In this document: one piece after another, positions 37,058-57,507 of the stretch
Position numbering within the stretch: position 1 is the stretch's first letter
How the letters are laid out: each line of letters begins with the position of its first letter
Source: Amoeboaphelidium occidentale
Taxonomy: Eukaryota
Reading direction: 5' to 3'
DNA: 64,000 bases
Assembly (NCBI GenBank): GCA_023515795.1
Contig: JALGPX010000005.1
Span: 124,001-188,000 of the forward strand
Made by a program: the position numbers and the translations under genes
Notes under the pieces: generated by a model
The model's input: the letters and a program-made list of their open reading frames with translations, nothing else
What the model was told of the DNA's origin: nothing
Databases searched by the model: none

Positions 37058-37323
37058 GGTTCTTGGAAAATCAAGCGCCACAGACAAGCGATGATTGAGG
37101 CGAGAAAGCTTTGGTGGTTTCATCAGAATTACTGCTGCATCACTTTGGAATATTTAGAGAGTCGTACACTTATGAATAGATGATCATCGTGATGTTGGCG
37201 GCTGAGCGTTGTTTGACACCCAAATCTTGCCACTGCAACATCTTCTTAGATTGACTTGTCGAAACACTAGCTGTAAACTAGTTCGAAACTATTCTCTTTA
37301 TTAACCTTTTTTTTAGCTTGACC

Positions 37324-40300
37324 ATGAAGCTGTATGAACTTAAGGCTTGGCCAGGAGTATTGCAGGTGGTTATGTTACAAGTGGCCATGATGATCATGTT
37401 GATCGATGCAGCAAAGTTCAAGCAGACTTATGCCTTTGTCTCAACCAACATCATGGATGATAACTCAACCGGCGTTCCTATTAAAACTCAGAGTATCATA
37501 ACCAAGCTAACTTATGAAACTGGATATCCAACACATCCTGCTGATGCAAAGGTATTGACAAACTTTGGTCTTGAATCCTATGCAAAGTACCACGCAATGG
37601 CTTTTGATCAAGAAACTGGTATATTGTACTTCAGTACTGTAGAGCCAGATGATTCCTACAGAGGAGGACCATCTCAGTTTACAGTTAACATCAAAATGGT
37701 TGATGTGTTTAGTAACGAGGAGGCTCCTGCCAGTCTACTGCTTGAGTATTCATTTTTCTCTTGGAACGCAAGCACTCCCGAATTATATCATATGATCACT
37801 GACATAAAATTGGATAAAAATTTGGGGCTGCTTTTGTTTTCCTACAGCGATAGAGGTCCAGATGTTTCAACCAGGATCATAGCTTTTAGTTTGGTGAACA
37901 ACAACTTTACTATTGTTTGGGACTCTCCTGAGGGACCTTTCTTTGATACTGTTTTTGTTCTTGACACCGCAAATACTTCTGTGTACACATACTTTGGAGA
38001 AGAATTTGTGGTTTTTGATTACTCAAATCCTACTGGCTCAATTCCTGCTGATTACATGCTGATGGAGTCCATGTTCAAGCCGCCACCGCTTTATTGGGAC
38101 CTTGATATTGCTACCTTTGGTGCTGTCTACGCTGTAAAGGAAAGCAATTTTGTTTTCTTATTGACGGCACTTGACTATTTTGGAGGGGAATTCCCCATCG
38201 GTCCTATCGGGCTAAGTATGGCTGATCAGAAGAAGCTTATATTCGATTTCTCACTGAACAAGACTGTTTTTTACGATGAGTACAATATTTGGAACTATGA
38301 TTATGTTACTGGCAACTTGTTTTTGAAGTTCGATTTCGGTCCAACGTCCCCTACACCGCTGCCATTTCTAAAAGGAGCTCCTTCAATACCAAAAATTGCC
38401 AGATACTGCCTTGGTGATACCGTTGATGTTTTTGTTCCGGAATGTGCAAGTTGTGTAACAAATAATAACAAGATTGTCAACTTTGTCAGTGTTAACACCG
38501 TTGACTACTACTACTATGGTGATAATTCAAATATTCCAGAAGCACCTCAGAGTTATTTAGGTACAATTGGATATCCTGTGTTCAAGAACATTTTGCCGAA
38601 TGATGGCATTTCGTCTTATGATAAGTCACAGCCGATTGTGTTTGATGAAGAAAATGGTTACTTGTATTTCGGCAACTTGGAACCAGCTGGGGTAAACGAA
38701 ACCAACATTTTCACTTGCAATTTAAAAAGAGTTGATGTTTACAATAACTCTTTTCCTGCTGCCGAGTTAGTTTACACCTTTGATACCTTCGTGTGGGAAA
38801 CTCGCTTTTTAGGATGCTCTGTTAACGATTTGCATCTAGACAAGGAACGTAATCTCCTGGTCATCGCATGGACTCCTCCAGAACTTAATCAAAACCGTGA
38901 ACTTGGCGTCTTGAATTTGACTAGTGCAATATTTGATACCATTTATCAGACGGATGATTTCCTTGGTGATATTATTGGCTTAGACACGGCTGCTGGAACC
39001 TTGTACGTGACTAGGTTCTCGGATTTGGTGTTTTTCTCATACCTAGAGTTGAGCAATGCTACTGTTCCAAGTTCAATTGTTACTGTTGAGAATTTTCAAG
39101 TCTATACCGATTTTGCTGTTGGACGCGAAGAAGATGAGCCTAAAATCTTCTATGTAGATAGTTACGTACTTCCGGGCACGTCTTTACCCCGCGATGCTTT
39201 GTACTCTAAGCCTCTCAATTCTTCTGAAGAAAAACGCCGTCTTTATGATCTTGACTTTCTTGATTACCTATCTCAAAGAAGTCCGTCTCAATACAAAGTT
39301 TCTTTAGATGCCTCCAACAGGAAACTGTTTTTGTACGGGTTGTATCATGTTATTCAATTTGATCTTAATGACATCTCAAAAGAGCCAGAATTGTTATGGG
39401 ATAGCACGTTAAACGGCAATCCTTGGATACAAGAGGTTGTTGCATCTCAAATTGTAAGATTCTGCAGAGGGTACACTGAGAGTTTTGGACCGGTTACCGA
39501 GACTACAACATTGGCTTCTACTACAATGAACCCTTCAACAACTCTGCCTACTATGACGCCTAAACCGACACCAGCTCCTACTATTTGTCCTACTTGCTCT
39601 GATCAAGACATTCAAAATGTTGCCTTCATCAGCTATACCGATGCTCAGTTTTACGGCGAGTCTCTTCCGCAACAAGTGTTCAGTTACATTGCAAAAGTTG
39701 GCTTTCCAGGACTTTACGCTCCTTTTGTTGAATTCTTACCCAACTTAGGAACCGAATCATTTGGAAACCAACAGATGGCTTACGATGACAAGACCGGGCT
39801 TTTGTACTTTACTACTTTAGAACAGGTCTTTGTGGACGGATTTCCTAAAAATTTTAGTTGTAACGTTAAGGTTGTCGATACAAAAAATCCGGCCTTCCCT
39901 CCTTCTGAGTTATTGTACACGATTTCAAATTTCCCAGTGGAATCATTGGAAAAGTGTTTTATAAATCAGCTGGACTTAGATTCAGAAAGATCATTGTTGG
40001 TTATATCCTGGGGCATTTATCCGAACGGCTACAGTAATCATATTGGTGCTTATAATCTTTCTTCCAAAGTTTATGATGTTTTGTGGTCTCCGCCCACGTA
40101 TGATTTATTTGGTCGCATGGTAGACCTCAACAAGAAAACAGGAGAAGTTTACGTGTTCTTATCCAGTTATCTTACCAAATTCTCATACTTGGATTTTTCG
40201 GATGCCACAGTTCCCAAAAATGCAAAAGTTATCAGCTTTGAAATTCCTTTTCCTCCGAACTATGTGATTGACTGGGCTGGAGATTACCCTGTTATGTATT

Positions 40301-42552
40301 TTATTCGCAATCCACTGCTGGTAAAGAGAGATACCGATACTTTTCTCAGTTATATCAAATTCAATGGAACGTTTCAGGAGGGTCAGTCTGTTAATTTGAA
40401 TGCTTTGCAACAACAGGCACAAATGTACGCTTCTAATATGGCGATGTTTATTGACGAAAAGAGGAGAAAGCTCATGTTGCACGACAAGAAGAATATTTGG
40501 CAAATTTCTTTAAATGACTCGAACGCTGTTCCAGAACTTTACTATGAATCTTCCTTCTTCACGCCTTTAGTAGCCGCTGCTAACAACTCTGTCTATTTTG
40601 ATATGTTGGATAACTACTGCCCGGGTTTTATCAGATCTGCGGTTGTGTCTACCACTCAAATGGTCACCACTGTTGAGCCAACAATTGTGACAAATACTGC
40701 AATATCTACTGAGGCGAAATCGACGACATCTTCTGCAGTCAATTCCTTCTCAACTACTTTTGCTGTTACTACTTCTGCCTTCATAGTGGCGAATACATCA
40801 AGCACCACTCCCGCATTGGCGACTACAACTACCAAAACAACTGAGATGGTTATGCAAAACAGAACAGCTGTTGACTTTACCACCACGAAACAGTCATTTA
40901 CAACCTTGACTGTCAATCCTTTCACAACTTCAATCAACTCAACTAACTTCAATGGAACTGTTATCATGTCACCTCTGGAAGTTGTATTCTCAGAGCAAGG
41001 TGCATCTGATTTTGCAGTTACAGTCAACGTTATTACAGGTACTGCAATCGCTGGAACCGTTGGTGGTAGTATTGTTTCATCAGTTGTTGTTAGCTCGACT
41101 TTGGCTGGCGCGGGCGCTGGAGCTGGTGGTGTTGCTGGGAATGCGGCGTTAGCTGGCCAAGCAGCTGCTGGTCCTTACATTTTGATTGTATTGAATCAAC
41201 TGCAATTCATGGTCTTGTTGAATATGATAAGTGGTGATGTACCGCCATTCTATCAATCGTTTGCAGGNAACGTTATTACAGGTACTGCAATCGCTGGAAC
41301 CGTTGGTGGTAGTATTGTTTCATCAGTTGTTGTTAGCTCGACTTTGGCTGGAGCTGGTGGTGTTGCTGGGAATGCGGCGTTAGCTGGCCAAGCAGCTGCT
41401 GGTCCTTACATTTTGATTGTTTTGAATCAACTGCAATTCATGGTCTTGTTGAATATGATAAGTGGTGATGTACCGCCATTCTATCAATCGTTTGCAGGAG
41501 GTATATCCTGGGTCATGCTTGGTTTCAGTGGCGCCAATTTTGGAACATCAACATCCCCTTCTTTAAACAAGAGAGATGGCGTGATTTCTGCTGTTAATTC
41601 AACACAGAATGGTATGGAAAGATATGCTCAATCTATAGGTTTGGACGTATCTCAAGTGTTTTCGTCGTTCATGATTATTTTCCTATTACTTGCCGGTGCT
41701 GCGCTTTTACTAGTCTTTGTGTTTTCCACCTTCCGCAGGTATCAAGAGAAAGTAAAGGCCGCAAAAGATGGAAATACTCCAGCGACATTTGGCGCAAAAG
41801 TCACTAATGTTGGCTTAACTTTAAGCAGAAAAGGTTTTGGACATTTGTTCATTTTTGCGTACATCTCTATGTGTACGCTCTCTGTCGCGCAACTATTCAT
41901 TGCCGACACTATTGGAAACTTTTTCGGAGCGCTCGTTTTGGCAGTCATTTGCACTGGATTTTTAGCAATGTTGTCTATTGCTATTATTAAGCCAGACTAT
42001 GAGTGGTCCAAGAAGTTCTTGAGCGCTACAGAGCCTGTTTATAATACTTTCTTCAAAGAGATTGTTTGTGGAGATTATAAGGACGAACATGTTTTTGCTG
42101 GTGTTGTTAAAACGTTTTTCAAGTATTTAGTCGGAATTATTACTGGTGCAGCTCAGAATGTTCCTGTCGCTCAAACATGCTTGATCATGTCGATTTATAT
42201 TTTGCAGGCGGTTTACTTTTTGAAAACTAGGCCGCATAAGTTCAATGCTGTGTTTTGGGTAGAAATTGTTGCCACTCTTGTGAGTGTTGTAAGTTTGGCC
42301 CTGAAAGTTTATACAACAGCTTACCCAGATGTACAAGTTGCAGCAGTTGGAGCAGCTCTGTTGGTTGTTAATGGTGCTTTGATTATCCTTGTCTTGGTTG
42401 GTATCATGGTAGAACAAACCGCCAAATTTCTTGATAGAAGAGCAAAAGCCAGAAAAACCGGTTCTGAAACAGAAAAGAAGGATGAAGATCTTGCTAAGAG
42501 CGCTGAGCTCAATAGTCCTGATGTCGGTGGACTCGACAAGAAGGACGAATAG
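37324..42552 (+). CDS. Large membrane protein: signal peptide, three tandem extracellular repeats, Ser/Thr stalk, TRP-like (FLC-type) multi-pass domain
   Basis: Single-exon ORF with three homologous ~340-390 aa repeats; LNQLQF..L..ISG.VPPFYQSF..W motif followed by about 7 TM helices. About 240 nt are duplicated at N 41268, so the true length is roughly 1660 aa. Confidence 0.75.
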   Translation: MKLYELKAWPGVLQVVMLQVAMMIMLIDAAKFKQTYAFVSTNIMDDNSTGVPIKTQSIITKLTYETGYPTHPADAKVLTNFGLESYAKYHAMAFDQETGILYFSTVEPDDSYRGGPSQFTVNIKMVDVFSNEEAPASLLLEYSFFSWNASTPELYHMITDIKLDKNLGLLLFSYSDRGPDVSTRIIAFSLVNNNFTIVWDSPEGPFFDTVFVLDTANTSVYTYFGEEFVVFDYSNPTGSIPADYMLMESMFKPPPLYWDLDIATFGAVYAVKESNFVFLLTALDYFGGEFPIGPIGLSMADQKKLIFDFSLNKTVFYDEYNIWNYDYVTGNLFLKFDFGPTSPTPLPFLKGAPSIPKIARYCLGDTVDVFVPECASCVTNNNKIVNFVSVNTVDYYYYGDNSNIPEAPQSYLGTIGYPVFKNILPNDGISSYDKSQPIVFDEENGYLYFGNLEPAGVNETNIFTCNLKRVDVYNNSFPAAELVYTFDTFVWETRFLGCSVNDLHLDKERNLLVIAWTPPELNQNRELGVLNLTSAIFDTIYQTDDFLGDIIGLDTAAGTLYVTRFSDLVFFSYLELSNATVPSSIVTVENFQVYTDFAVGREEDEPKIFYVDSYVLPGTSLPRDALYSKPLNSSEEKRRLYDLDFLDYLSQRSPSQYKVSLDASNRKLFLYGLYHVIQFDLNDISKEPELLWDSTLNGNPWIQEVVASQIVRFCRGYTESFGPVTETTTLASTTMNPSTTLPTMTPKPTPAPTICPTCSDQDIQNVAFISYTDAQFYGESLPQQVFSYIAKVGFPGLYAPFVEFLPNLGTESFGNQQMAYDDKTGLLYFTTLEQVFVDGFPKNFSCNVKVVDTKNPAFPPSELLYTISNFPVESLEKCFINQLDLDSERSLLVISWGIYPNGYSNHIGAYNLSSKVYDVLWSPPTYDLFGRMVDLNKKTGEVYVFLSSYLTKFSYLDFSDATVPKNAKVISFEIPFPPNYVIDWAGDYPVMYFIRNPLLVKRDTDTFLSYIKFNGTFQEGQSVNLNALQQQAQMYASNMAMFIDEKRRKLMLHDKKNIWQISLNDSNAVPELYYESSFFTPLVAAANNSVYFDMLDNYCPGFIRSAVVSTTQMVTTVEPTIVTNTAISTEAKSTTSSAVNSFSTTFAVTTSAFIVANTSSTTPALATTTTKTTEMVMQNRTAVDFTTTKQSFTTLTVNPFTTSINSTNFNGTVIMSPLEVVFSEQGASDFAVTVNVITGTAIAGTVGGSIVSSVVVSSTLAGAGAGAGGVAGNAALAGQAAAGPYILIVLNQLQFMVLLNMISGDVPPFYQSFAXNVITGTAIAGTVGGSIVSSVVVSSTLAGAGGVAGNAALAGQAAAGPYILIVLNQLQFMVLLNMISGDVPPFYQSFAGGISWVMLGFSGANFGTSTSPSLNKRDGVISAVNSTQNGMERYAQSIGLDVSQVFSSFMIIFLLLAGAALLLVFVFSTFRRYQEKVKAAKDGNTPATFGAKVTNVGLTLSRKGFGHLFIFAYISMCTLSVAQLFIADTIGNFFGALVLAVICTGFLAMLSIAIIKPDYEWSKKFLSATEPVYNTFFKEIVCGDYKDEHVFAGVVKTFFKYLVGIITGAAQNVPVAQTCLIMSIYILQAVYFLKTRPHKFNAVFWVEIVATLVSVVSLALKVYTTAYPDVQVAAVGAALLVVNGALIILVLVGIMVEQTAKFLDRRAKARKTGSETEKKDEDLAKSAELNSPDVGGLDKKDE

Positions 42553-47645: not shown

Positions 47646-47826
47646 TGTTGGAATTAATGCGAATTCCAGTTTAGTCGATTCAATACAAACACTTCCGTTT
47701 TGGTCTGAGTTGTGGCTGAGTAATTTGACGTAGATCTGTAGATCAAATAAAGTTAAGTGCGAAGTGAACGAAGTGCGTTTATTTCGGTCTTGCTAGGTTT
47801 ACAGTTAAGTAAGTTAAGCGTTTCTT
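47646..47826 (+). mobile_element. Ty1/copia LTR, truncated by a contig join
   Basis: Starts TGTTGGAAT; near-identical to 57239-57412 apart from a 7-nt indel. The 88-nt left flank recurs at 47828-47915 without the LTR. Confidence 0.88.
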
Positions 47827-51129: not shown

Positions 51130-51202
51130 GCTCTGTTGGCGCAGCTGGCAGCGCGTAGGTCTCATAATCCTGAGGTCGTGAGTTCGAACCTCACACAGAG
51201 CA
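51130..51202 (+). tRNA. tRNA-Met(CAT), elongator type
   Basis: Acceptor GCTCTGT/ACAGAGC, D-arm TGGCGCAGCTGGCAGCGC, anticodon loop CTCATAA, T-arm GTGAG-TTCGAAC-CTCAC. Confidence 0.95.
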
Positions 51203-51203
51203 C

Positions 51204-51426: not shown

Positions 51427-51744
51427 TGATAATTAGTCCATAGAGATTATCATCGTGTTGACCTTCTGAGATGTTTAACTCAGGCGAAGGCGTCCCGAGA
51501 ATAATGATGACCTCTCGTTTCAAGGTTATACCATTAATGCCTTCATAATTGATGTTTGCTGTCAGCCGCATCCACAAAACCAAGAAGAGTTTAAAATCTC
51601 TTGTATATCGCGTATCAATAGGATCGTAATCATTCTGCAATTCTCCCAAACACGTGCAACGCAAACAGAACGCACAATTTCTATTTTAGACTAGATAGTA
51701 ACTACACAAAATAACATTAAAATATCGTGATGATACAGCGTACC
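51427..51744 (-). ncRNA. Candidate omegaRNA scaffold of the Fanzor-like locus
   Basis: Directly 3' of the RuvC ORF; five closely spaced stem-loops in 51427-51603. Boundaries unknown. Confidence 0.35.
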
Positions 51745-53440
51745 TCAATGCGACATGTCAAGCCGCCTTTTTCCCTTCTTTACCAATGAAACAGATACGT
51801 TATCTTCAGCGGAATCATCTAAAGTCTTATCACCTATTTCATCGCTAATGGAAGCAGAATAATCTGGTGAAGGCTTGTCCGGAGGTTTGTATCGTAAGTG
51901 CTCAGGCCTTCCTTTCCCTGTTACTTCATCTCTTAGCACTCTTGCCATGTTCTCTCCAGCCATAACGTCTCGATGATAGAAAACATGACAATGTCTGCAA
52001 TATTTCACACGCATCTTGAGTTGTTCTGTCCTGTTGAAACATCTAGGACACATTTGACTGGTAAGATACTCCTCAACGCAGACAACAGTGTAGCCAAGAG
52101 ATCTTAATTTCATAACCAGATGTTTTTCAAACAATGTGTGAGTGTTGTCTCCCATTTCGAATTTGCTTGCTCCTATGCCAATGACAATGCGTTTGTTTTT
52201 GAAAGCCTCACGCTTCAGATTGTAGTTGATTTTCATTTCTACCATTCGAAGTATAGCATGAACAGCACGATCAAATTCGCCACGCAGAGCTTTCTTGATA
52301 TCCCATCGATTCTTTTTCATGGATAAACTATTGTAGAAAGCATACAATTTTGAGTAACAGTTAAACCATCTAGTCGCGAAATTGGAAGCTGTTTCAGATT
52401 CAGTTCTCTCCATTAGCCGCTCTGTTTCATACACCCACTCATTCTCATATTTTTGTTTGTAAAACCATCTGTTGTATTTTTTTAATGGTCCTCGAAGGGC
52501 GTTCTTTCTGATAGCAAGATTGCGGATGGTATTCGAGCTTTCTTGTACTGCACAGACACCAGCAGAATACTTGTATCCTAAATCAACTCCAACAAAGTAG
52601 CAATCCTTTGCTTCATCCTCGGTCATTTTAGGAACTTTGTCATAAACAACGTCGGAGGGCTTGACACCAGCATTATCAAACAACCCTTCGTCAAAGTCGA
52701 TCTCCTGAGTTGGTTGGAGAACGTTCCTCTTCTTTTTCTCTGCTGTGTCAAGAACATGCACTCTCAACTCTACACCATCAGTTTGCAATGTATTCTGTAA
52801 AATATATCGTTTGTTTGAAGTATCATTCTGAAGTCGAAGATGCCGATTTCGATTATCACCAAAGTTTTTGCCAAACAATTCCATAAAGAACCACCCCTTG
52901 TTCTGAATTACAAAGTCGTTCGAAATTCTCTTAAACACTGGAACAACTTGTTTAAGAACATCCAATAAGCCAGACTCGTTAACGGTGATCGCAAGGTCAG
53001 GAACGCGGGACAACGAAAACATACTCCATCGCTTGTTGCTTGGAAGTAGTTGATTCAGCTTGTAAAAATACTCAACCTTGCTTTTGCATAGCTTTTGTAG
53101 CTTGTTGATATCATCTTTTAGATTTGAGTCATATTCAAAGACAACTTCCTCTAATAGTTTCACTCTGCCAACAACTTGCCCAGCGAACTCGGTGTCCAAC
53201 TGTTTAGCGATGAAATCAGTTGCCTGACACATACTGAATTTTGATAACGTATACAATTTCAGAGACTTCACCTCACGACCGCTGAACAATTTCTTATTAA
53301 TACAACTTTTAAAGAGGTTTAACCCTACAGACTCAGTTTCATCCCTCCCAGTACCATTAAGAAACGACATGCATGGCTGCCAGAATTTTCTTCCTCCTTG
53401 ACCTTTTGTATCACCAAGAATCATATCATCTAATTTTAAC
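51745..53440 (-). CDS. Fanzor1/TnpB-like RuvC nuclease domain (C-terminal half of the fused gene)
   Basis: TDGV motif; RuvC-I VGVDLG (D at 52582-52584); IVIGIG; RuvC-II VEEYLTSQMC (E at 52069-52071); zinc finger CPRC..CRHC; RuvC-III HRDVMAGENM (D at 51967-51969); terminal RP..L. Confidence 0.9.
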
Positions 53441-53441
53441 N

Positions 53442-56400
53442 AACAATTTCTTATTAATACAACTTTTAAAGAGGTTTAACCCTACCGACTCAGTTTCATC
53501 CCTCCCAGTACCATTAAGAAACGACATGCATGGCTGCCAGAATTTTCTTCCTCCTTGACCTTTTGTATCACCAAGAATCATATCATCTAATTTTAACGTG
53601 TTTTCATTTAATTTTATAATACTCTCTACAAACACTTCTGCGGCTTACTGGGCTTTGCGTTTCAGTATATTCAGCTGCGCCACTAAAATACTGAAACAAT
53701 GAATTATTTCTTTTTCATACTGTGCATATTGTCTTTGTCGATTTCTTGTTGAAAGCGCTCCAATACTCCACGTCTTTGTTACAAACTTTGCTTTCAAACT
53801 TGACATTTCTCTACTTTCGTCCGTGACGTTACGCGAACCTGTAGCACCAGCCTCAGCAGCATCAGGCTTATTTCTAAAATTTCTTGATGATGGCTGGTGT
53901 TTCGCAGACGTCTTTTTTCTCTTCTTACTTGAATTGTGAACGGTTGTTGAAGCAGAAGATCCACTTTCTTCATTGCTTTTACTTCCATCTAAATTTTCCT
54001 GTAATGCTTCAATTTGAGATTCCAAAATTTCCTCCGGCTGCTTTGGTCTTTTCTTCAGAGGTAAAGGTGGAACCTCAGACACACACAGTGATTTTCTATC
54101 CACAGTTTTATATTTATATCGCGTCAAGCTTTCATTATCATCATTGAACTTCTCACCTAGAACACGAAACGGATTTTTGTGAGTCCAGCGTTTAAGGTCC
54201 AAATTATCGCTGTTCCCAATATAATTTTCCTGCTTATCCTTCCATGCAATATTGTAATTGTCCCATTTTTTAATACTCTCCTTATTAAACAAAGATAACT
54301 GTAATAGTTTTTCTGTTCTAGCGTCGTGATGTAGAACATGTTCCTCTTTGCACTCAAAGATCATAANAGCACCAGCCTCAGCAGCATCAGGCTTATTTCT
54401 AAAATTTCTTGATGATGGCTGGTGTTTCGCAGACTTCTTTTTTCTCTTCTTACTTGAATTGTGGACGGTTGTTGAAGCAGTAAATCCACTGTCTTCATTG
54501 CTTTCACTGCCATCTAAATTTTCCTGTAATGCTTCAATTTGAGATTCCAAAATTTCCTCCGGCTGCTTTGGTCTTTTCTTCAGAGGTAAAGGTGGAACCT
54601 CAGACACACACACAGTGATTTTCTATCCACAGTTTTATATTTATATCGCGTCAAGCTTTCATTATCATCATTGAACTTCTCACCTAGAACACGAAACGGA
54701 TTTTTGTGAGTCCAGCGTTTAAGGTCCAAATTATCGCTGTTCCCAATATAATTTTCCTGCTTATCCTTCCATGCAATAATGTAATTGTCCCATTTTTTAA
54801 TACTCTCCTTATTAACAAAGATAACTGTAATAGTTTTTCTGTTCTAGCGTCGTGATGTAGAACATGTTCCTCTTTGCACTCAAAGATCATAATGGCTTTG
54901 TCAAAATTCGAGTCCGAACCAACAGTTTCCAAGAACGATTGTACTATCTTGTTGCATGACTCAAGATCAGCTTTTCTGTATTGTCTTATCCATTTGTACA
55001 CGCTAGCAATAGCCCATCCTCGAACATTTGAGCAGTAATCATTTCCACTTAATACCGCCAATGCACGCAATGATGCAAGATTTAGCTTAAGCTTATTTCT
55101 GGCTTCAGCGACGTCAATGTATCGGATCATTAAATTATTTCCTTGAAGAGAAGGAACAGCCCAAATGCCGTCATTTAGATGAAACACCATATCAGAGTCA
55201 GTGCTGATAACATTTACGCGACCTTTTCTTGTACCAATGAACACATCCGCTTCACCGGCAGCTTGCTCAATCTTGTACCCAAGCCTCTTCAGTAGAGCCA
55301 TTATTTCTTCTTTGTCTTGCTTGGTCAGAACAAAAGCTTTCTTGATCAACTTCTTCATTAAGATTTTCTTTGCTTTAGACACTCTCTTCAAAGACACTTT
55401 ATCTTCTGCTCCCTCTTGATCTCCATTATCTTTGCATAGAGAGTCAACAAAATACTGAAGATCCTGAATAGATTGGCGCTTGCTCTCTAGCCTTTTGATG
55501 TGAGTGACTTGCTTCTCTTCTGTTGATCCACCATCAAAGACAATCGTTANTCCGCTTTACCGGCAGCTTGCTCAATCTGGTACCCAAGCCTCTTCAGTAG
55601 AGCCATTATTTCTTCTTTGTCTTGCTTGGTCAGAACAAAAGCTTTCATTATCAACTTCTTCATTAGGATTTTCTTTGATTTAGACACTCTCTTCAAAGAC
55701 ACTTTATCTTCTGCTCCCTCTTGATCTCCATTATCTTTGCATAGAGAGTCAACAAAATACTGAAGAGCCTGAACAGATTGGCGTTTGCTCTCTAGCCTTT
55801 TGATGTGAGTGACTTGCTTCTCTTCTGTTGATCCACCATCAAACACAATCGTTAAATGCTTGCTTTTAGGAATAATGGTTGTAATGCGCTTGACCATATG
55901 ATCCCAATCTTTTAATCTTGAGTACTTGGAGCACAATAAAGGATAGAAGACCGCCTCGAAGTCCAAGTAGTGATGCTCATTTCGAAAAGGATAATTTTCA
56001 TAACTGATATGCTTTGAGAAGAGCTTTTTGGCTTTGAAGAACTTNGATTTTCTTTGCTTTAGACACTCTCTTCAAAGACACTTTATCTTCTGCTCCCTCT
56101 TGATCTCCATTATCTTTGCATAGAGAGTCAACAAAATACTGAAGATCCTGAATAGATTGGCGCTTGCTCTCTAGCCTTTTGATGTGAGTGACTTGCTTCT
56201 CTTCTGTTGATCCACCATCAAAGACAATCGTTAAATGCTTGATTTTGGTAATAATGGTTGTAATGCGCTTGATCATATGATCCCAATCTTTTGATCTTGA
56301 GTACTTGGAGCACATCAAAGGATAGAAAACCGCCTCGAAGTCCAAGTAGTGATGCTCATTTCGAAAAGGATAATTTTCATAACTGATCTGCTTTGAGAAG

Positions 56401-56443
56401 AGCTTTTGGCTTTGAAGAACTTATGCGCACCTTCCACTCCCAT
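53442..56443 (-). pseudogene. FEN1/XPG-family PIN nuclease domain plus linker (N-terminal half of the fused gene), present as overlapping, partly disabled segments
   Basis: MGVEG start (ATG 56443), YLDFE, IVFDG..EEK..T..KR, QAAGEAD, ISTDSD, LAVLSGNDY..NVRG. Split by single-N joins at 53441, 54367, 55550 and 56045; frameshifts and one in-frame TAA (53645-53647). Confidence 0.85.
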
Positions 56444-56454
56444 TAATGATTATC

Positions 56455-57076
56455 AAAAAATAAAGAGAACGCAATCAGAAAAAAGGTCAAAAGCAAACTT
56501 TTCAATTTTATTAAGGTTTGTATGGGAGAATCGTTTAAGTATATGGCCCGGCTCTTGTTTAGCAAATTATTTAAAGTTGAAGTTTCCTAGTTAACCTTAA
56601 TGACAATCATGCTTCTGGTTCTGATACCTCTTCTATCAGATTGATCCCTCCGGTGCCTGGAGATTGACTTCTGTCTTAACACGTGCTTGCAGCACACACA
56701 CAGATCGACACCTCGAGCCACAGCCTGTATCTTCAGATAGCAAATTATTGATGAATGNNNNNNNNNNNNNNNNNNNAAAATAAAGATGACGCAATCAAAA
56801 AAGAGGTCATAAGCAAACTTTTCAATTTTATTAAGGTTTGTATGGGAGAATCGTTTAAGTATATGGCCCAGCTCTTGTTTAGCAAATTATTTAAAGTTGA
56901 AGTTTCCTAGTTAACCTTAATGACAATCTTGCTTCTGGTTCTGATACCTCTTCTATCAGATTGATCCCTCCTGTGCCTGGAGATTGACTTCTGTCTTTAT
57001 ACGTGCTTGCAGCACACACACAGATCGACACCTCGAGCCACAGCCTGTATCTTCAGATAGCAAATTATTGATGAAT
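56455..57076. repeat. ~300-nt near-identical duplication around N-gap 56758-56776 (probable haplotype duplication)
   Basis: 56455-56757 recurs at 56777-57076 with several substitutions. Confidence 0.8.
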
Positions 57077-57238
57077 GATCGTATTTTAGAACAGCTTTAC
57101 CTCTGATGGCTTTGCAGGTAACAGATAAGAAAGTGCAGCATCCTTAATGATCCCACAAAGGTCGTTAATAAGATGCAAGAACTTCAAGCAGACTTTTTTG
57201 TTCTACCCTTCGATCTTGCTTTCATCCATTACTGTTCC

Positions 57239-57507
57239 TGTTGGAATTAATGCGAATTCCAGTTTAGTCGATTCAATACAAACACTTCCGTTTTGGTCTG
57301 AGTTGTGGCTGAGTAATTTGACGTAGATCTGTAGATCAAATAAAGCGAAGTGAACGAAGTGCGTTTATTTCGGTCTTGCTAGGTTTACAGTTAAGTAAGT
57401 TAAGCGTTTCTTAGTGAAAAGTCGACAGTTATGAGCCCTGCTATCGACAACGTTAAGCACGTCCTCCAAGGTTCTAGCAATTATGCGCACTGGGCGCAAG
57501 AAATTAA
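57239..57507 (+). mobile_element. 5' end of a Ty1/copia retrotransposon: LTR, primer-binding site and gag start
   Basis: 189-bp LTR TG...CA (57239-57427); PBS GTTATGAGCCCTGC (57428-57441); gag MSPAIDNVKHVLQGSSNYAHW with the copia L.G..NY..W motif; truncated at N 57508. Confidence 0.9.

Follow-up and report, generated by a model that had tools for sequence, protein, structure and literature searches.

A 64,000-nucleotide (nt) stretch of the genome of Amoeboaphelidium occidentale, a fungus-related parasite of algae (contig JALGPX010000005.1, positions 124,001 to 188,000; here called the window, with positions counted from its first letter) contains, in a neighborhood of ordinary genes such as those for chitin synthase, Hsp70, and BCS1, a gene that joins an N-terminal FEN1/XPG-type 5′ nuclease domain to a C-terminal RuvC nuclease of the Fanzor1 type. 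It is the sole gene of a ~3.65-kb Helitron1-like element without a transposase, the ends of which were newly found here. In the assembly, single Ns at 53441, 54367, 55550, and 56045 divide the coding region into pieces B to F:

56046..56443, minus strand: piece B, from the start codon at 56443 through the first half of the FEN1/XPG-type domain; one nt missing near codon 13
55551..56044, minus strand: piece C, FEN1/XPG-type domain of a second element copy; frame open, catalytic Glu replaced (GKAD)
54368..55549, minus strand: piece D, FEN1/XPG-type domain with VFDG, GEAD (Glu at 55253-55251), TDSD, and SGNDY, followed by a linker that contains two frameshifts
53442..54366, minus strand: piece E, basic low-complexity linker, then the beginning of the Fanzor part; TAA specific to this copy at 53647-53645
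51745..53440, minus strand: piece F, Fanzor1 C-terminal half, a 564-amino acid open frame with C4 zinc finger
52584-52582 (Asp), 52071-52069 (Glu), and 51969-51967 (Asp), minus strand: RuvC acids of piece F

The N-separated segments share overlaps of 156-526 nt with 96-100% identity (B/C, 378 nt, 96.0%; C/D, 304 nt, 96.7%; B/D, 188 nt, 100%; D/E, 526 nt, 97.9%; E/F, 156 nt, 99.4%), as the initial annotation had noted. Stitching 56443-56423, 56044-55855, 55549-54893, 54366-53598, and 53440-51745 resulted in 3333 nt, corresponding to 1110 codons plus stop, with a lone internal stop at codon 530. All 10 motifs sought were found in this joined frame (MGVEG at codon 1, YLDF at 33, VFDG at 74, GEAD at 169, TDSD at 187, SGNDY at 238, TDG at 766, GVDLG at 830, EYLTSQ at 1003, and HRD at 1035). 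The frame of ~1110 amino acids broken by one TAA, as proposed earlier, can thus be assembled, but it does not correspond to one molecule: pieces B and D are identical along their 188-nt overlap, but C diverges from the two by 3-4%, which makes the joined frame a mosaic drawn from at least two damaged copies. Each of the pieces B to E carries a lesion of its own (the 1-nt loss, GKAD for GEAD, the two frameshifts after the nuclease domain, and the stop, respectively).

Contigs of seven of the nine listed sequencing runs (X1 to X7) were aligned to the region, which also served to place the element ends (see below). At position 53646, the base differed from that of the window's stop codon in all seven runs aligned, and a paralogue (P0003) encodes Leu at this position; the internal stop is therefore specific to this copy. 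An alternative genetic code for TAA was ruled out, as the standard code yields long genes in the window and the base concerned is not the same in other copies. Run X1 carries one extra base behind 56403 relative to piece B, and its contig jumps from 53329 to 53487, which is exactly the E/F duplication and identifies that overlap as an assembly artefact. Since X1, with zero to one differences to the flanks of the window, may be the source sample, its evidence was not counted as independent. Runs X2 to X7 contain relatives at roughly 85-96% identity.

NCBI holds three gene models of this kind on three contigs (P0001-P0003). P0001 (MP638_002209, A. occidentale) matches the locus at 99-100% in most pieces and is a spurious gene model in which the repeated pieces have been spliced to each other. 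The three models, and the two X1 right junctions found besides that of the window, are consistent with three loci in the genome. Substitution of the catalytic Glu by Lys, as in piece C, also occurs in P0003. Across the five overlaps, 21 non-synonymous and 11 synonymous differences were counted, which is near the expectation for decay. The differences to X1 (19 synonymous and 14 non-synonymous among the 33 listed, which comprise the best-supported ones) point to earlier purifying selection.

Two nuclease domains in one protein family

When piece F was used to search longer proteins, five matches resulted, four of which were new full-length proteins of 1102-1315 amino acids with the same nuclease domain at the N-terminus (P0004-P0007). 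Intact fused homologues, which the initial annotation had asked for, thus exist. The joined frame aligned over nearly its full length with P0004, P0005, and P0009 (27-30% identity). A full-length profile matched 6926 proteins at E ≤ 0.001 among 1.84 billion representatives; relatives examined were the best 150 of these, within a set of 155 proteins. Of this set, 48 proteins were fused, 41 had the N-terminal domain alone, and 66 had RuvC alone; all 36 proteins of at least 900 amino acids contained both domains. Because the full-length query favors fusions and biases the census towards them, the numbers show that fused forms are common, not that unfused ones are absent. The converse search, with a FEN-domain profile against longer proteins, was weak and, with two matches among 7994 scored, uninformative about other fusion partners.

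Fused homologues were found by the dozen in NCBI, JGI, ENA, and Logan, several of them on contigs of 4-5.5 kb. Of 20 matches looked up, 14 bore species names, comprising 13 Mortierellaceae-type fungi (Mortierella, Linnemannia, Dissophora, Actinomortierella, and Entomortierella) and one A. protococcarum. Two relatives had been named automatically "Rad2 nuclease". The ESM Atlas contained one cluster of 58 members (0.98; PF07282 in 67%), with no member named as a FEN fusion. A metagenome scan with 155 matches resulted in two loci, both too short for element ends to show. One relative (L001:852-1643) is interrupted by a frameshift or stop ahead of RuvC-II and has a C-terminal tail that is long and acidic and contains a small CxxC-H-C knuckle. 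No relative was found in viral contigs among 202 pattern matches; with host genes of normal function flanking the element, a proviral origin was dropped.

That the fusion is an artefact of patchwork assembly or gene prediction is hardly credible. The frame in the window is indeed a mosaic and the P0001 model a spurious splice of repeated pieces; however, overlaps of 156-526 nt at 96-100% connect the pieces, the paralogue P0002 holds both domains on a separate contig, and the fused homologues number in the dozens across four databases. The artefact reading, including the chimeric misassembly considered at the outset, is already largely refuted. Judged from the sequences, the fusion is real and widespread, and belongs to a large family rather than being a one-off.

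The identity of both domains was as first annotated. The first part of a family profile built from 117 of the collected sequences (alignment A3) matched FEN1 (6e-21, over the whole catalytic core), EXO1 (3e-20), and XPG (5e-19), whereas the rest matched SpuFz1 (1e-18) and GtFz1 (7e-11), followed by TnpB and Cas12f. Individual pieces behaved alike: piece D matched human FEN1 (phmmer, E=1.8e-4), and piece F matched PF07282 (E=2e-9). Modeling of piece F (predicted local distance difference test [pLDDT] 81) returned only Fanzor1 structures as the top seven Foldseek matches, which bears out the RuvC fold. The model of the intact P0005 (pLDDT 84, with a low-confidence linker at ~340-445) matched SpuFz1 (1e-10), GtFz1, FEN1 (8e-10), and EXO1 (4e-9); both this model and the family profile support a FEN-type fold with an arch and a helix-turn-helix DNA-binding motif.

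In the joined frame, the Fanzor1 motif D-X(125,275)-[TS]-[TS]-X-X-C4-X(5,50)-RD (PMC3627910) is present (D832, T1006-S1007, C1010/1013/1027/1030, and R1036-D1037), and the catalytic Glu is situated six residues ahead of the zinc finger (EYLTSQMC), as PMC13565253 gives for Fanzor1. With the Fanzor1 proteins SpuFz1, GtFz1, and PpFz1 (PMC3627910, PMC10432273, and PMC11423790), the C-terminal half shares the arrangement D-X(173)-TS-XX-C4-X(5)-RD. It also shares the shifted Glu, and its best structural matches are 8gkh/9ceu/9cer. Unlike those proteins, members of the fused family have 1100-1300 instead of 400-700 amino acids, since a full FEN1/EXO1-type domain and a disordered linker precede the Fanzor part; DLG in place of DPG and the lack of terminal inverted repeats are further differences. 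With the Rad2/XPG nucleases (FEN1, EXO1, XPG, and GEN1), the N-terminal MG, the seven acids, the gateway Lys and Arg, the helical arch region, and the SGNDY hairpin are shared (alignment with human FEN1/EXO1). Identity, in contrast, is only ~16-18%, and the domain is fused to a putative guided nuclease in a mobile element. The scores do not clearly separate FEN1 from EXO1 (77.7 vs 75.4 bits, and 64.4 vs 54.0 in a second profile search); the motifs EAD and DSD are EXO1-like, unlike the EAE and DMD of FEN1.

Both catalytic sets are conserved. In A3, the seven FEN acids were kept in 50/52, 60/64, 66/68, 69/70, 68/71, 69/71, and 74/76 sequences, and the gateway residues in 62/63 (Lys) and 63/66 (Arg), which amounts to 94-99% across the family; the RuvC triad was kept in 81/84 (D), 53/57 (E), and 56/60 (D). 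Among 47 two-domain proteins, all ten catalytic acids were covered in 10 and intact in each of these; the other 37 were gapped at one catalytic position or more, and a few carried substitutions (P0017, P0058, P0094, and P0116). Pairwise identities in the FEN and RuvC domains, with a median of 26% in each, correlated (rho 0.63, 756 pairs; none of 999 permutations as high), and trees of the two domains (25 proteins; the RuvC tree a quick one with long branches) contained the same main groups. This points to one old, stable fusion, the domains of which share their descent.

A Helitron1-like element and its ends

The following features, in which a slash marks the element boundary, delimit the element:

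51691..56704, minus strand: whole element as assembled, from contig breakpoints (3648 nt without the overlaps); non-autonomous, Helitron1-like
56703..56708, minus strand: left end TCGA/TC, where the element begins at TC (56704-56703) after A; second assembled version at ~57023-57028
51690..51694, minus strand: right end CTAG/T, at 7/7 distinct junctions (gene strand)
51750..51766, minus strand: subterminal hairpin GCGGC-N7-GTCGC with a 5-bp stem (DNA fold)
51689..51826, minus strand: terminal 138 nt, a candidate for both an omega-RNA scaffold and a transposase end signal
51671..51690, minus strand: host flank, would-be guide source (position only, by analogy with PMC13565253)

At the right end, matches stopped at 51688-51690 with unrelated flanks in two X1, two X5, and three X6 contigs (two of them common to X5 and one to X2), which, including the window's own, makes seven distinct junctions; the base following CTAG/T was C or T. 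These many insertion sites attest to the mobility of the element. At the left end, X2 and X3, which represent one locus, diverged beyond 56706, and a high-depth X1 contig ended at 56708; these breakpoints bracket A(56705)/TC. A duplicate assembled piece (56777-57077) lies at this end. The left-end letters alone have a probability of ~0.1 by chance and are thus weaker than the right end; for A/TC and CTAG/T to occur within five positions of both contig-defined ends, it is ~0.002. Helitron1 elements insert between a host A and a host T. Here, CTRR followed by a host T was found at the 3′ end and TC after a host A at the 5′ end, and a 5′-TC, CTRR-3′, and a subterminal hairpin are the Helitron1 features given in PMC3627910. 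Because TC(T) is present at both junctions of the window and an empty site was not encountered, the ends may be shifted by 1-3 nt, or a short repeat may be present. Terminal inverted repeats were absent from the 25 longest of 376 pairs and from a direct comparison of the ends, and a cut-and-paste model was dropped for this reason.

Among the closest known systems are CRe-1, -2, and -3 of Chlamydomonas (PMC3627910), in which Fanzor1 is likewise the sole gene between Helitron ends, without RepHel. Those are, however, Helitron2 elements with asymmetric inverted repeats and target duplications, whereas the window element has Helitron1-type TC...CTAG ends and an extra nuclease.

Contigs of X5 and X6 match the terminal 138 nt and then diverge behind 51826 into a different interior. 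They may represent ghost or sister elements, and would be reminiscent of the "ghost" loci of SpuFz1. Rfam contained no family for the terminal region; the only matches were a tRNA and one sub-threshold chance match. Inside the candidate omega-RNA region, 42 nt (51698-51739) are present in the window and X6 and absent in X2 and X3, which reach the same terminal letters without them. This segment contains a GT..AG pair; as breaks at 51741 occur in contigs from two runs of DNA type, genomic variation fits better than an intron.

A tRNA-Met gene (51130-51203) is situated ~490 nt from the right end, with no evidence of targeting.

What the second nuclease might do

For the fused protein, RNA-guided homing in which the extra nuclease trims the break ends towards recombination, a role already suggested in the initial annotation, has about an even chance of being correct. 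A rolling-circle transposase from elsewhere would carry the element to new sites, as the A/TC...CTAG/T ends suggest. A transcript through the right end would, as in other Fanzors, provide the omega-RNA, with the right flank as guide. RuvC would then cut the empty allele beside a sequence resembling the left flank (TCGA or CTGA plus T, judging from three left ends), and the tethered 5′ nuclease would strip the 5′ overhang and resect, favoring homologous recombination over end joining, so that repair would copy the element into the cut allele from the filled one. SpuFz1 cleavage leaves 5′ overhangs. Fanzors were proposed to aid single-stranded DNA transposons such as Helitrons by cut-and-copy (PMC10432273), and human EXO1 fused to Cas9 increased homology-directed repair and decreased non-homologous end joining (PMC11107001). 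The cut predicted at the empty site resembles that in systems combining a single-stranded DNA transposon with an RNA-guided RuvC nuclease; the differences are the eukaryotic host with its competing end joining and the second nuclease being built in. With the engineered EXO1-Cas9 editor of PMC11107001, the tethering of a 5′ nuclease to an RNA-guided nuclease is shared; that editor is man-made and Cas9-based, whereas the fused family is natural, apparently old, and ~1100 amino acids long.

Several observations weigh against RNA-guided homing by this element. The copies in the window look decayed and are probably dead, and activity, RNA guidance, and the RNA itself are predictions. The fold of the candidate omega-RNA was no better than chance (z -1.72; 11/200 shuffles as good). 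The subterminal hairpin is weak, no better than shuffles (z +1.24), and 55 nt away from the terminal CTAG in the window (13 nt in the X2/X3 form lacking 51698-51739). No empty allele was found: in the seven runs, no contig joins 51690 to 56705, and the target site is therefore deduced from the ends. RepHel was absent from the element and from the 25 open reading frames of the window that were scanned, and the element ends were seen only in the aphelid-type family, not in the Mortierellaceae members. To our knowledge, the characterized Fanzors work without a FEN-type domain. Finally, RuvC-I of the window is DLG (DIG, DLG, DFG, and DLG in P0004-P0007) and thus departs from DPG, the Fanzor RuvC-I signature according to PMC10711439; as some members in the published table do have DPG, it is not strict in the fused branch.

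The FEN-type domain might instead serve rolling-circle transposition itself, by removing the displaced 5′ flap or resolving a heteroduplex, and have been joined to RuvC via a shared cassette. Flap removal is the textbook FEN1 reaction, the ends are Helitron1-like, and FEN1 scored slightly above EXO1 in both profile searches. Yet a cassette needs no fusion, and the domains stayed joined down to ~26% identity; moreover, the partner is the guided nuclease, not a transposase, and host FEN1 could presumably do the job, which leaves this explanation rather unlikely. It is very unlikely that the domain matures the guide by trimming the 5′ part of a read-through mRNA to the omega-RNA. Such trimming would be needed because the candidate scaffold (51826-51689) overlaps the end of the reading frame, and some FEN-family enzymes act on RNA; the structural matches of the domain, however, are all DNA nucleases of the FEN1/EXO1/XPG group, and TnpB processes its own mRNA with RuvC (PMC10278001). 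Two nucleases with conserved catalytic sets in one chain would also suit a guided shredder, in which RuvC would cut the target open and the 5′ nuclease would go on to degrade rival DNA, be it that of empty chromosomes, other elements, or viruses, the more so as processive resection and destruction would be the same chemistry. A guide derived from the flank of the element itself would, however, aim at the host locus, the destruction of which would not copy the element, and neither a guide array or foreign spacer nor, among the 202 pattern matches, a viral-contig relative was seen; we consider a shredder decidedly improbable.

To return to homing, the more general proposition that a large, old branch in aphelids and early-branching fungi is a natural cut-and-resect homing machine on rolling-circle elements is given somewhat less than even chances. 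If true, a resection enzyme of its own would overcome the difficulty that end joining poses to guided nucleases in eukaryotes, and the family could supply a compact editor, usable as it stands, for precise repair or for large deletions, a natural counterpart of engineered exonuclease-Cas fusions for tool builders. PMC10432273 describes the biological role of Fanzors as unknown. A fusion kept down to ~26% identity would provide a direct handle on it, as mutants of single domains could separate cutting from the steering of repair.

Prior record and neighboring features

The sequences themselves are not new. Supplementary Table 1 of PMC10432273 classes P0002 (KAI3661525.1) as FZ1, following the tree published there, and includes two A. 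protococcarum proteins and many Mortierellaceae entries that share its N-terminal motifs; the supplement of PMC10711439 also contains such proteins. Within the searched texts of PMC10432273, PMC10530073, PMC10711439, and PMC11423790, neither XPG, FEN1, nor a fusion was mentioned, although the domain may appear among the Fanzor architectures drawn in figure S1B of PMC10530073, which lies outside the text searched. The fusion was likewise unmentioned in the searched parts of PMC13565253, PMC5499597, PMC10799480, and 10.64898/2026.06.03.729735, with Repbase and subscription papers outside that search. A literature search pairing Fanzor with XPG retrieved no papers, and one for Helitron with XPG/FEN1/Rad2 nothing relevant among 15 papers of 443. 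The initial annotation named no characterized Fanzor with a second 5′ nuclease; the sequences of this kind form a large family already tabulated as Fz1. What the record suggests is a real, widespread, and apparently undiscussed Fanzor1 variant with a second nuclease of predicted function, here in a Helitron1-like element.

In Supplementary Table 1 of PMC10432273, row 630 lists KAI3658238.1 (A. occidentale, 1219 amino acids), which has a RuvC score and, in the first ~400 residues viewed, FEN-like N-terminal features (MG, YESD, SDAD, and GCDNY). It stands outside the FZ1 branch, possibly as an independent fusion or by long-branch misplacement.

Elsewhere in the window, a ~190-nt high-copy insert occurs at 57239-57430 and 47646-47826, with an X1 depth of ~1100 compared with ~110 in single-copy flanks. 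It ends in a hairpin plus CAG, unrelated to the ends of the Fanzor element, and at both places a neighboring assembled version lacks it, which suggests a presence/absence polymorphism. At 37282-42552, an open frame of 1756 amino acids encodes a C-terminal TRP-like membrane domain (PF06011) behind a long unannotated N-terminal part.

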